In this document: positions 18,293 through 63,393 of the stretch, one piece after another | Layout: every line of letters starts with the position of its first letter | How positions within the stretch are numbered: position 1 is the first letter of the stretch | Source: Eledone cirrhosa | Lineage: Eukaryota | Assembly: GCA_964016885.1 (NCBI GenBank) | Contig: OZ024750.1 | Location: 25,110,001-25,174,000 of the forward strand | DNA: 64,000 bases | Direction: 5' to 3' | Notes under the pieces: model-generated | Told to the model about the DNA's origin: nothing | The model's input: the letters and a program-made list of their open reading frames with translations, nothing else | Database searches by the model: none | Program-made: the position numbers and the translations under genes

Positions 18293-19113
18293 CTAAGGAC
18301 TTAAGACATTTTGTGTTGTTTTTCTGGGCGGAAGTTGTGTGTTCCTGATCAATTTGACCACTTAACATTTTATCAGTGGTGCTTGTTTTGTCAACTAAAT
18401 CTTTTCATTTTAGAAGTAGCCAATTAAGAAGTCATGACTGTCTTTCCTACAGTTTATACAGTTTAACTATTAAAGTTCTGTGACAATCAGATTGCTTGTC
18501 AGAGCAACATAATGGTTGTGTCAGTGGTATGGATGAAGTAATGTCATTTCAAGTACATCTCTCTAGTGTATATATACATATATGTATATACACACACACA
18601 CATACACACATACACACATACAAACATATATATATTTATATATATAAACGCATACACATAGACCTACATACAAACATCCATAAACACATATACACACACA
18701 CACACACATACATACACGTGTATATACATACCTACCTACATACAAACATACATATATATATATATATATACCTACATATATACATACATACATATATGCA
18801 TACATACATACTACTTTCAATGTGATTGAGAGAAAAAGTTATCTTTTACTATTAGGAGATTGTCATAGTAGTCTGCTGTTTGCTTTGTAGAACATTAATA
18901 AGTTATAAAACCTTTTATGGCGGAGCTGTTGTTTATGTCTGACATAGGTGAGTTACATCATCATCAGCACCGTTTTATGTCCATTTTTCCATGCTAGCAT
19001 GGGTATTAGACACAATACAGCGGTAAAAAGGGGACCTGATTACAACAGCCTGGCATTATAAAAGGATTGTGACACTGCTGATCACAAATGCTAGTCTTGC
19101 TATATATATATAT

Positions 19114-19541
19114 ATAAATGGAAACTATATTTATAAAACCATATTTATTTCATTATACATATTTCAAGGACACCAAAGCAAATTATGGTGCGCTTTCATC
19201 AGATAAAATATAATATAGATCAGTTTTATAAACAGATATTGACATACCCTTAAAAGAATGCAACCATGTCTGTTGGAAGCTCCCGACATGGTCGCATTCT
19301 TTTAAGGGTATGTCAATATTTGTTTATAAAACTGATCTATATTATATTTTATCTGATGAAAGCACACCATAATTTGCTTTGGTGTCCTTGAAATATGTAT
19401 AATGAAATAAATATGGTTTTATAAATATAGTTTCCATTTATTAATATATTGTATTTTTACTCCAAAAATTTGTTGAGTGCTTTATATCAGTTATAAAAAT
19501 ATTTGCTTGTTGTATCCCAACAAATTAAATATAACTTCTAC
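19114..19541 (+). mobile_element. (TA)n-flanked fold-back element (Penelope-like pseudo-LTR remnant) with 157-bp inverted arms and a tail
   Basis: Arms 19114-19270 and 19285-19441, unique tail to 19541, (TA)n on both sides, hammerhead motif in each arm. Confidence 0.75.
19345..19409 (+). ncRNA. Type I minimal hammerhead ribozyme motif
   Basis: tattttat-CTGATGA-aagcacacca..tggtgtcctt-GAAA-tatgta-TA-atgaaata, with an 8-bp stem I. An inverted copy lies at 19146-19210 (-). Confidence 0.75.
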
Positions 19542-29579: not shown

Positions 29580-29783
29580 AACGAAGGAAGTGTGGTAAGG
29601 GACCATGTGGACCATATCACACCAGAGTACTCAATACTTAGGGTAGTAGAGTGGGTAATAGGAAAAGGTTCAGGACCCCGACAGCAGAGCTCAAGCAGTT
29701 TCGATTAAATTCTGGAATTTAGTCCAGAAATAGCCGTTGAAATGACTTGAGCTCTGCCGTCGGGGTCCTGAACCTTTTCCTAT
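29580..29783 (-). mobile_element. (TA)n-flanked tail+hairpin element (family D, copy 1)
   Basis: Homologous to 55605-55775 and 63162-63360. Hairpin at 29658-29783. Strand inferred by analogy with 19114. Confidence 0.7.
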
Positions 29784-29936: not shown

Positions 29937-31770
29937 CAAGGAGATGCCCTAGATAGGAGTAACTATAGAGGCATTAAATTAATTGACCAGGTCATGAAGG
30001 TCACAGAAAAAGTAATAGCGCAACTAATCAGAGAGAGAATTGATCTAGATGAAATGCAGTTCGGGTTTGTGTCAGGTAAAAGTACCACAGACGCTCTTTT
30101 CATTGTATGACAACTACAGGAGAAGTACCTAGCTAAAAGTAAACCCCTATACTTAGCTTTTGTCGACTTGGAGAAAGCCTTTGACAGAGTCCCCCGTTCC
30201 ATTATCTGGTGGGCTCTTAGAAAACTAGGTATTGATGAATGGCTTGTGAGAGCTATACAAGCCATGTATAAAGAAACAGTCAGCAAGGTTAGAATTAACA
30301 ACGAATATAGTGAAGTGTTTAGCGTAAAAGTTGGTGTTCATCAGGGCTCCGTTCTTAGCCCCCTACTATTTATTATTGCCCTTCAGGCTATAACAGTGGA
30401 GTTCAAGACCGGCTGCCCATGGGAACTCCTATACGCAGATGATCTAACGCTCATAGCTGAATCAATGGCCGAACTAGAGAAGAAATTCCAAACATGGAAG
30501 CACGGCCTAGAATCAAAAGGCCTTAAAATTAACCTGTCTAAGACTAAAGTTCTAGTTTGTAGGAAGGAAAATAGGGCACCGGTCCCATCCGGGAAATGGC
30601 CATACTCAGTGTGTAAGAAAGGAGTAGGTAGAAACTCCATTTTATGTCCCAAATGCAAAGTATGGGTGCATAAAAGATGTAGTGGGATCACAGGTAGGCT
30701 AACTAAGAACATAGATTTTATATGTGGCCGGTGCTCTGGTGCAATAGGTAGCAGCAAGTGCCCACAGAATACTAGCTCATTCCATTGCACAGATGGTTCT
30801 ATAGAAATAGTGGACAGCTTCCGTTACCTGGGTGACAAAATCAGCAGTGGGGGAGGGTGCTCTGAAAGTACAGTAGCTAGAGTCAGAACTGGAGGGAAAA
30901 AGTTCAGAGAGCTTATACCACTATTAGCCGCTAAAGGGTTCTCCCTAAAAATGAAAGGCAGGCTGTATGATGCCTGCATACGAACAGCAATGTTGCATGG
31001 CAGTGAGACCTGGGCATTGTGTGCAGAGGATATACGCAGACTGGAGAGGAACGAAGCTTGCATGTTCAGCTGGATGTGTAATAGTAATATACGTGAACGG
31101 CAAAGCATAAACGAACTAAGGGAAAAATTAGAAATAAGAGGGATCAGATGTTGTTTACTCGAGAGAAGACTACGTTGGTATGGTCACGTGATGCGCATGA
31201 AAGACGACAGCTGTATAAAAAAGTGCAGGGCAATAAAAATAGACGGTAGCCACGGAGTAGGCAGACCCAGGAAAACCTGGGACGACTTGATAAATTCCAA
31301 CCTCACACACTTACACCTCTCCAAGACAATGTTACTGGACCGAGATCTTTGGGGCTACACAGTAATAGAGAAGACCCGCCTTACATAAGTACAAAGTGAA
31401 ACCTACTACAGTCAGTAGGCACCTCTAACAAAATACACCCCCGTCCCACTACCCCCATCCCATCCACACCACCCCTTTCAATGTAAAGTGGTACCACAAC
31501 ATCCAGTCTGAAAGAAATGAGGTCGTGTAGGTCTCACAACAAAAAAACACACAGTCCACGCTGTAATGTGGCCGTGTAGGTAACACGGTAAAAACCTCCC
31601 AGTTCCACACTGTAAATGTGGTTGGTGTTAGGAAGCTGGGGCATCCAGCCGTAGAAAACCCGCCAGACAGTCCTATACGAGCAAGCCAACCACTCTTGCC
31701 TCAAGTAGGAAAACTCCCGTCCAAACCCATGCAAGCGTGGAATATGGACGTTAAACGATGATGATGATGA
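29937..31770 (+). pseudogene. 5'-truncated RTE LINE (RT, PHD-like insert, 3' UTR, (gat)n tail)
   Basis: ORF 30168-31388 is closely similar to the 205-3324 protein. There is an upstream in-frame TGA near 30108, and the first PHD Cys is replaced by Tyr (WPYSVC). Confidence 0.9.
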
Positions 31771-39965: not shown

Positions 39966-41010
39966 AAAAAAAATTATTAACTCTAGTGATGATGAACTAT
40001 GATGTTGATGATGATGATAATGAACTATGATGTTGCAGAGTTTTCTCAGTCAAACCCTCTCTAATTGAAATCATTTACTGTATATAGTCTTTCAAAAACA
40101 ATATCTTTAGCTGTCTTTAAAATTTGATCTTTACTTCTTATATATTATTAAGTGAACCAATCCTGTTCTTCAATCAATCTAGTTCTGAACATATTTGATT
40201 ACAGTAGAAATCTTATATATCATTGTTTACTCAAAGACTAAAATTAGGCAGGTTTTTACAATAAGTTGTCAATAAATGGTCTTCAAGCTACCTACTAGTT
40301 ATTTACTATAGTTAAAGTATTTCAATTTTATCTTTGTAAGAATTTTATTTTAGTTTTATAAATTTTATAATCTATTTAACAGAGTTTAATTTTTTTTTTT
40401 TTTTCAAATCTTTTGTAAAAATAGTTTAAAATAGCAAAACCAATTGCTTCTAAAGATTTCCAATAGTGGGGATATTTCAAAAGAACTGTTGGTGGCAATT
40501 CTGCAGATTCCAGAAATTCTGCTGCTGAATTTGATTTGCAGGTGTAACTGCTGTTAATCATACAATTCTGAGCATTATATATGAATGTGGGAACTCCTTC
40601 TAAATCAAAACCTTACTGTTTATCTGTTTGCCATTTGTACTTATTGATTTTTCTATAGATAAAAAAACAAACATAAAGATGAACAATAGATGCTATTCTA
40701 TATAACAGTCTTGTTGTTTAGTGAGTGGTCTTTTATTTTTCAAAAATAGTTTTTAGGGGGGTGAAGTTTTATAAAAATATCTTAAACTGGTAAATTCTTT
40801 CATAATCATTGATTTTTGGGATAATTCTATTCATAAAAAATATATAGCATACATAAAATTTATATTTGTACATGCAAAAGCTTTTAAAGTTAAATCCAAA
40901 GCTGTCAAAACAGCAAGAGCTCAGCCATCAGGCCCCAACTCTTTCTAATAAAGTCACACTCTACTATCCCAAGTACTCTGTTGAATAATGGTCTTACTAG
41001 TTTAATACTG

Positions 41011-44645: not shown

Positions 44646-45623
<978 letters not shown>

Positions 45624-52004: not shown

Positions 52005-52027
52005 ATATATATATATATATATATTAT

Positions 52028-52178
52028 AATTGTTTCTATATTTGGCACAAAGCCAGCAATTATCCCAGTGTATTACTGGTACTTTATTTTATCGTCCCCG
52101 TAAGGATGAAAGGCAATGTTAACCTCGGCGGGATTAATACCAGGACGAATGGTTACTCCTTCATTACGTTTATTGGAG

Positions 52179-52211
<33 letters not shown>

Positions 52212-52415
52212 TTCATTATATAAATGGGCGGTGGATTGGCAGTATCGGTAGAGGGTCGGATGCCATGCTTTCCAGCATAGTTACGTCCCTTTACAATCTG
52301 AGTTCAAATCCCGCCGAGGTTGACTTTGCCTTTCATCCTTACGGGGTCGATAAAATAAAGTACCAGTAATGCACTGGGTAATTGCTGGCCTTGTGCCTAA
52401 AGTAGAAACAATTAT
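52028..52415. mobile_element. Divergent pair of Meta-like SINEs (minus partial 52028-52133, plus full 52227-52415)
   Basis: Family consensus. Confidence 0.8.
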
Positions 52416-52922
52416 TCATTATATAAATATATATAATGTATATGTATAGGTTTGCATGTGGGTGTTTGTATGTGTAAAAATTTGTGTGTGTTTACACATG
52501 TGGATATTTGTGTGTGTGTTTACACATGTGGATATTTGTGTGTTCACATGTGGGTGTTTGCATGTGTACACATGTGGGGTTTTGTGTATGTACATGCAAA
52601 GGCGCATGCGTGCGTGTGTCTGTGTATATGTGTGGTTCTATAGTAGTGTATTTATGATGTTGAGTAGTATACGTGTGAGTCTTGAATGGAGAAACTTTGA
52701 GAGCCCTGACTTCTGTCAATCGATTGATCTGTCGAACAATCGATTGATCTGTTAAGATAGAAGTTGGAAACAAACACCACAGCTTGTTGCTATGGTTAAT
52801 TTGGTTAATTTCAAAGACTTCAAAATAAATTAAGAAATAGAAAACAAAAACGTAAAGAAAAAGATTCCAACTTTCTTAGAAAAATGTCAGAATGTCAATG
52901 AAAGTTCATTTTCAAACTGAAC

Positions 52923-55604: not shown

Positions 55605-55775
55605 AACGAAGGAAATGTGGTAAGGAACCAGATGGACCATAACGCACCAAAGTACTCAATACTTAGGGTAGTAGAGTGGGTAATAGGAATGAGTAGAACC
55701 CTGACGGCTAATTCTGTCCAGAATTAGCCGTCGAATCAGCTTGAGCTCAGCCCTCGAGGTCCTACTCGTTCCTAT
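55605..55775 (-). mobile_element. (TA)n-flanked tail+hairpin element (family D, copy 2, deleted in one arm)
   Basis: Homologous to 63162-63360. Confidence 0.7.
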
Positions 55776-57825: not shown

Positions 57826-58177
57826 GGAGGAGGTTATAGTTCACTTGAAGCATTGTGTAATGAGGTATAAACGTTTGTATATGTATAATAAAGCCAAAAC
57901 AATGCAGGTATGGACATAGAATAAAGAATGCAAATGCAAAAGATATTGTTGACAATTAGTCTTTTACCTTTTACCTATCAGCATGACTTGGCAAGCTATT
58001 TAGAACACTGGTTTGAGACCTTTACTTCCCTCTGAAGAAGAGATATTATCTCGAAAATTAAGGACATTTAAATAAATCTAAGGTAAAAGACTAATTGTCA
58101 ACAATATCTTTTGCATTTGCATTCTTTATTCTATGTCCATACCTGCATTGTTTTGGCTTTATTATACACATACAAAC

Positions 58178-58184
<7 letters not shown>
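57826..58184 (-). mobile_element. (TA)n-flanked fold-back element with 105-bp arms and a candidate hammerhead in the spacer
   Basis: Arms 57866-57970 and 58080-58184, tail 57826-57865. The motif cct-CTGAAGA-a-gagat-att-atctc-GAAA-atta-agg is at 58029-58063 (+). Confidence 0.65.
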
Positions 58185-63130: not shown

Positions 63131-63393
63131 TTATAGGTGATATATATATATATATATATATAACGAAGGAAATGTGGTAAGGAACCAGGTGGACCATAAC
63201 GCACCAAAGTACTCAATACTTGAGGTAGTAGAGTGGGTAATAGGAACCAGTAAGACCCCGACAGCTGAGCTCAAGCCGTTTCGACGGCTAATTCTGGACC
63301 GTCCAGAATTAGCCGTCGAAACGGCTTGAGCTCAGCTGTCGGGGTCTTACTGGTTCCTATATATATATATATATATATATATATGCATTATAG

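Follow-up and report, generated by a model that had tools for sequence, protein, structure and literature searches.

Hairpins in (TA)n tracts of the Eledone cirrhosa genome are stubs of a Hydra-clade Penelope-like retrotransposon, probably formed by priming from both target ends

Three hairpins in a 64,000-nt stretch of the Eledone cirrhosa genome (the window, analyzed here at its full length) represent stubs of an end repeat (pLTR) that belongs to a young Penelope-like retrotransposon of the Hydra clade. Comparison of copies across the genome revealed several characteristic features of these insertions: (i) their outer ends fall at two fixed sites, (ii) their two arms are joined head to head and may differ in length, (iii) the arms of one copy agree with each other and have since changed independently, and (iv) the inner ends of the arms cluster near one position. 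Such insertions are probably formed when both cut strands of the (TA)n target prime on one element RNA at two fixed sites, and the two cDNAs are then joined head to head.

The three related elements occupy positions 29580-29782, 55605-55774, and 63162-63359 of the window. Each is bordered on both sides by (TA)n and has an unpaired stretch of 79 nt that leads into an inverted repeat; the sense strand of the retrotransposon is the minus strand of the window. Positions in the element are numbered from the A at the hairpin centre (+1). A preliminary description had placed the hairpins at 29658, 55683, and 63240; all three are present, with stems that start one base later (29659, 55684, and 63241). 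The arms pair perfectly within copies A and C, as it had stated, whereas the arms quoted for copy B mismatch at two positions, where they form G-T pairs. The features of the three copies are as follows.

29580..29782, minus strand: copy A, a two-armed pLTR stub of an older subfamily, in (TA)n
29580..29658, minus strand: copy A tail, +139 to +61, present on a single arm only
29659..29716, minus strand: copy A tail-bearing arm, to about +3, with a small internal change close to the centre
29717..29782, plus strand: copy A inverted arm, -4 to +60, with terminus CCTA followed by (TA)n
55605..55774, minus strand: copy B, a two-armed stub
55605-55683, minus strand: copy B tail
55684-55716: copy B tail-bearing arm, with a deletion between two short direct repeats
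55716-55774: copy B inverted arm, from +2
63162..63359, minus strand: copy C, a young stub with two arms, sharing 99-100% identity with the intact 3,531-bp unit
63162..63240, minus strand: copy C 79-nt tail, between two putative reverse-transcription start sites (+139 and +60)
63211..63234, minus strand: copy C small bulged hairpin (predicted fold), 7 nt past the +60 end
63241..63299, minus strand: copy C tail-bearing arm, +60 to +2
63255..63282, minus strand: copy C predicted hammerhead, 3' half (GAAA, helix III, GUC site, helix I 3' strand)
63300..63300, no strand: copy C head-to-head joint, one untemplated base
63301..63359, plus strand: copy C inverted arm, +2 to +60, with terminus CCTA followed by (TA)n

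Copy C contains the 3' half of the predicted hammerhead and lacks the 5' half. The stem letters that differ among the window copies are subfamily variants adjoining helix I. In folds of full-length copies, a hairpin resembling that at 63211..63234 lies 6 nt past the +139 end; it folds as proposed, whereas the minimum-energy fold at 63211..63234 differs from the proposed register, which is non-optimal.

Several other repeats were observed in the window. A weak, decayed relative of the same end repeat (70% identity over 76 nt) lies at 40900-40975 on the minus strand. Three more inverted repeats in (TA)n, at 19106-19449, 44699-45006, and 57866-58184, are unmatched to the 3,531-bp unit; they are probably stubs of other Penelope-like families, since each contains, by eye, a hammerhead-type core CUGA(U/A)GA..GAAA. 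Another repeat is present twice at 52006-52435, as oppositely oriented copies with (TA)n on either side. Immediately downstream of copy A, at about 29990-30800, there is a fragment that resembles, by eye, the reverse transcriptase (RT) of non-LTR retrotransposons, judged by its likeness to frames in loci L031 and L035.

We counted 39,767 exact occurrences of a 20-mer from this family in the 3.0-Gb genome and none of its reversed control, so that the family numbers about 40,000 copies; its target is (TA)n. Longer copies run on into a reading frame with Hydra motifs, and a tandem array yielded a 3,531-bp unit with a 717-aa ORF, the units being 99.9-100% identical. Many near-identical copies have long open frames, and the family looks very young by its sequences. 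One array (loci L304-L305; G000:C1:437.20 Mb) comprises 4.5 units in tandem, which are 99.9-100% identical and have intact ORFs. Among 7,996 candidates scored, 402 relatives of the ORF protein were found at E<=1e-10. The ORF is 710-717 aa long, and the RT motifs FDI, MGA, and YRDD and the nuclease motifs VIY/YIG, R, E, and N are conserved in 30 aligned proteins.

This organization is that of endonuclease-bearing (EN+) Penelope-like elements: a single ORF encodes RT followed by a C-terminal GIY-YIG nuclease, the 3,531-bp units stand in tandem with pLTRs, and insertions carry an inverted 5'-truncated copy with a tail on one side. Assignment to the Hydra clade rests on motifs, which agree with the feature list in section 11 of PMC8557442. 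The protein carries LRWR and SDKTG, and its relatives RWK or RWR and DKT, in the places of the Hydra RWK and DKT-for-DKG signatures; the CxCX5C linker is present, CCHH is absent, and CxxC and CxH surround the conserved E and N. Hydra elements insert into (TA)n, and here 174 of 195 tail ends pass into (TA)n, whereas 15 extend further along the element and 6 follow neither course. Searches of Pfam gave no match for the 717-aa protein, RVT_1 in one of 30 relatives, and GIY-YIG at E 0.014 in one of 30; neither Pfam nor PDB gave a match for the ORF or its profile.

A miniature inverted-repeat (MITE) or fold-back DNA transposon does not describe these copies, which have a 79-nt tail on one arm, variable centres, and longer versions that encode RT. 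The MITE, Helitron, and DIRS readings, compared with what we take to be the features of those families, were dropped because the longer copies show RT with a GIY-YIG-type end. Penelope-like elements are the sister group of telomerase. In locus L032 (2551-4665), a copy of the Hydra-type family is adjoined by another Penelope-like family, which is broken and has similar motifs.

Three landmarks mark the start of the element. The CCTA end lies at +60, the tail end at +139, and the ATG at +232, 231 nt below +1; both outer ends thus fall in the leader that precedes the ORF on its 5' side. Position +1 is part of an initiator-like motif, and -29 is the first position of a TATA-like box. The same TATA-like and initiator-like spacing is seen in a rotifer pLTR in the available text of PMC3846280. 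The pLTR region folds as a putative hammerhead whose core is mostly U3-A8 (UUGANAA), with a C3/A8 mismatch in one subfamily; a U3-A8 variant has been reported in Penelope-like elements (PMC4209133, in the portion available). Its three helices pair in 95.7% of cells, with no compensatory change and without beating shuffled sequences, and Rfam returned no hammerhead match, giving chance miRNA-type matches or nothing. Because of the lack of compensatory change and of an Rfam match, the pLTR hammerhead stays a prediction. In a few copies, a surplus of ends was seen by eye at the predicted ribozyme site (+41/+42).

The two outer ends are used almost equally. For one subfamily, exact genomic matches identified 7,247 places where CCTA is followed by TATA and 7,623 that run on into the tail, a ratio near 1:1; these matches confirm the common ccta terminus before (TA)n noted in the preliminary description. 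A rarer subfamily has 854 genomic matches; we analyzed 90 of its copies, selected by their inverted arm. They comprise 78 two-armed copies, 8 solo copies, and 4 long ones with a CCTA end. Since solo and long copies share this end, +60 serves by itself as a 3' end.

The proposed route starts with the GIY-YIG domain, which would nick both (TA)n strands and so expose an identical primer on each. One strand end would start synthesis at +60 and its counterpart at +139, presumably on the same RNA and through 2-3 nt of AU pairing, and the cDNA begun at +139 would displace, often only in part, the one begun at +60. Both cDNAs would likely be halted by the RNA 5' end, with +1 as a putative capped transcription start, and their 3' ends would be joined by microhomology or by a template jump. 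A start in the first pLTR of the mRNA would end at +1 and leave a stub of about 140-200 bp, whereas long or tandem copies would result from a start in a pLTR further downstream. Arms would match within copies because both cut ends likely copied the same RNA. The junction patterns, which give an indirect view of priming, fit second-strand priming of the L1 type with microhomology joining.

The lengths of the arms bear on whether one arm could be a copy of the other. Arms span about 20 bp to 16 kb. Among the 78 two-armed copies of the rarer subfamily, the arms are within 10 nt of each other in 55, the inverted arm is more than 10 nt longer in 19, and the tail arm is longer in 4; in 6 of the 78 there is no overlap, the tail arm stopping short of it. 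A sample picked on the tail-bearing arm comprised 95 of the first 100 listed places and the three window copies; a script called 73 of these 98 as short hairpins, which is a lower bound. The inverted arm is longer in 20 of the 73 and shorter in 5, counts that include some mis-parsed or internally deleted copies on both sides. A single insertion joins a 287-bp tail arm to a 16-kb arm ending in CCTA.

The preliminary description had suggested that one arm is re-copied from the other by a programmed fold-back. In such self-priming, the first cDNA would turn and copy its own arm until its CCTA annealed to (TA)n, and unequal arms would reflect later deletions. This reading agrees with the concordance of the arms, with the correlation between left and right inner ends (Spearman 0.37, p=0.0009, 78 copies), and with the 55 copies whose arms are nearly equal; deletions in palindromes could produce part of the inequality, and self-priming has been proposed for Penelope palindromes (PMC3846280, in the sections available). 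However, the longer inverted arms hold sequence that their partners lack, and together with the non-overlapping arms and the pair of 287 bp and 16 kb they mean that simple fold-back fails for many copies unless deletion followed, while later deletion leaves the one-sided excess (19 to 4 and 20 to 5 in the two samples) unexplained. Solo and long copies with a CCTA end and joints without a loop also count against it, so that re-copying of one arm from the other is unlikely.

Priming from both ends leaves the nature of the centre to be considered. Both arms end within -6..+9 in 49 of the 78 copies, and at least one arm does so in 69. The turn-around point described earlier as fixed is thus clustered, but it is not a single point, the 78 copies having 58 distinct joints. 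The same joint recurs across subfamilies, and joints from inside the tail to +1/+2, of the kind without arm overlap, were also found in short-read contigs (four runs of one study, possibly of the assembly's own sample). One substitution in the rarer subfamily creates a 4-nt palindrome at +2..+5, and 16 of the 78 joints lie there without a loop, as expected if two cDNA ends anneal.

Individual joints show further variety. Four loci (L022, L186, L198, and L245) have 17-25 nt of homopolymer or short-repeat filler at the head-to-head joint. In loci L266 and L115, the tail arm ends exactly at the start of the other arm. In the complex insertion L004, the tail arm extends to +1, and an inverted segment from upstream begins at nearly the same point, as in L1 twin priming; an additional internal fold-back is present in the same insertion.

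We consider it somewhat more likely than not that the hairpin centre marks the start of the element RNA, the mRNA 5' end: the arms stop sharply there, the TATA-like and initiator-like motifs are spaced accordingly, and the site lies above the ATG. Continuation upstream was seen in only 19 of 84 arms that reach +1, a set that includes loci chosen for reaching it. Genome-wide, the base after +1 in 21,131 arms is the templated A in 13,595, C in 3,475, T in 704, and, by subtraction, G in 3,357. An extra C at +1 was found in 13 loci and an extra T in none; the partner arm and the target leave 18 C and 17 T unexplained (30 loci each). An extra G marks the cap in full-length L1 copies (PMC11702581, in the part available). 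Untemplated C follows ends other than +1 as well (13 of 34; p=0.32 in a matched subset), so that the extra C at +1 speaks only weakly for a cap.

Priming could be two-ended and the centre could still be a processing site, or a place where an RNA hairpin stalls the enzyme, and not a capped start. In the predicted fold of long copies, +1..+5 form the 3' strand of a small AU-rich hairpin, the ends peak at +2..+7, and the extra C is not specific to +1, all of which suit a stall. Yet the enzyme passes stronger GC-rich stems downstream, whereas only 19 of the 84 arms cross +1, and the TATA-like and initiator-like motifs stand at canonical spacing 231 nt above the ATG; there is accordingly little probability that the centre is a stall or a processing site. 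The broader proposal, that the centre is a capped start, that the roughly 40,000 stubs arise by two-site priming on one mRNA, where one enzyme displaces the cDNA made by the other and joins onto its end, and that in Penelope-like elements at large the same reaction explains how the tail and the inverted pLTR arise and how the second strand is completed, is tentative and has slightly less than an even chance.

The number of templates was approached through the concordance of the arms. After removal of 8 of the 73 hairpins in which the stem boundary was not found, outer-stem identity in the remaining 65 copies is 0.947 within and 0.792 between copies, and none of 10,000 permutations reached the observed value. 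The covariation of arms between copies, on which the preliminary description had remarked, is therefore above chance, and its proposed comparison of within-copy with between-copy identity came out with the former higher. Outer stems are identical within a copy in 35 of 65 cases and between copies in 14%. Among tail arms with diagnostic letters in the fetched loci, 69 of 70 match the rare subfamily of their partner, and one has a common-subfamily patch; three rare variants are mirrored on both arms. Arm covariation is best read as both arms having been copied from one template.

Two separate RNAs from the same source locus, brought by a protein dimer, might also template the arms, and concordance cannot separate this from the use of one RNA. 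The PAc protein is a predicted dimer (PMC11167929, in the text available), the displacement step would be unnecessary, and the arms are discordant in a few copies: L066, L089, and L064 have arms that resemble different subfamilies, the first two being older copies that may reflect two-template events or conversion. Against two RNAs stand the 69 of 70 concordant arms and the three mirrored variants, and L266 and L115 look like twin priming on one RNA. We consider the use of two RNAs improbable and retain one RNA primed from both ends.

The history of the arms after insertion was read from 1,970 paired columns in 71 copies, which contain 11 left-only, 17 right-only, and 3 mirrored changes. The arms were thus born alike and then decayed apart. 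With 28 one-sided against 3 mirrored changes, selection on pairing, which had been offered as an alternative, is not supported; that the hairpin arises during mobilisation, and not by random 5' inversion, was borne out. Inheritance from a pre-formed non-autonomous hairpin element, or maintenance by selection or arm-to-arm conversion, could account for a single joint recurring in 16 of 78 copies, but it is largely refuted and very improbable given the 58 distinct joints, the microhomology at the recurrent one, the sharing of the same joint across subfamilies, and the predominance of one-sided changes.

The family provides young junctions by the tens of thousands, along with intact ORFs and a naturally occurring single-base substitution that shifts the joint, and therefore supports concrete predictions of the two-primer reaction: starts at +60 and +139, a stop at +1, and one template. 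Since the layout has been published and the stubs are probably inert, its value is mechanistic and moderate. It is a new family of a known clade with a known layout and with unusually rich junction evidence. The origin of inverted repeats and tails in Penelope-like elements is called an open problem in the available parts of PMC8557442 and PMC11167929. In the Penelope literature searched, the term 'twin priming' was not found in the text available, and by title and abstract, in mostly open literature without the 2005-2006 reviews, we found no paper that explains the arms by two primers or connects the centre with the start of transcription.

Comparison with known systems, made on the available sections of each source, places the family as follows. 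Like members of the Hydra clade (Craig et al. 2021, PMC8557442; the clade includes Hydra-1_Obim), it has an RWK-type motif, DKT, the CxCX5C linker, no CCHH, CxxC and CxH around E and N, a single ORF, a (TA)n target, and, by prediction, a hammerhead-type pLTR motif. Unlike them, its unit is 3.5 kb long (with a 1.1-kb 3' region) and not <3 kb, and its predicted hammerhead has a long loop II and a core that is mostly U3-A8, in contrast to the listed Hydra motifs; the motif of Hydra-1_oBim also differs from the one here, and the family is therefore a separate one. An inverted copy with a one-sided tail is standard for EN+ Penelope-like elements (PMC3846280, PMC8557442), in which, as here, a 5'-truncated inverted copy stands head to head, the tail is at one end only, and the pLTR has a TATA-like box about 20 nt ahead of an initiator-like motif. 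The tail is 79 nt here versus 30-40 nt in those elements, and most copies here are bare stubs. The same two papers invoke self-priming or endonuclease resolution, whereas the junctions described here favour two primed cDNAs.

Purified PAc (Frangieh et al. 2024, PMC11167929) extends both target strands and, in the text available, initiates at two neighbouring internal sites, between which the tail lies. The likeness lies in these two internal starts near the RNA 5' end and in an AT-rich target. PAc belongs to the Poseidon clade, its sites are within the ORF and not upstream of the ATG, and priming without homology is reported for it, in contrast to the 2-3 nt AU match here; in the sections available, no connection is drawn between its two start sites and the paired arms of a single insertion. 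LINE-1 twin priming (PMC10760644, PMC11702581, both in part) is likewise characterized by two primers, two cDNAs, a microhomology joint, and an inversion. In L1, the second site is variable and the overlap is 1-10 nt at most, whereas in the present family the second site is fixed and the overlap usually extends over a whole arm.
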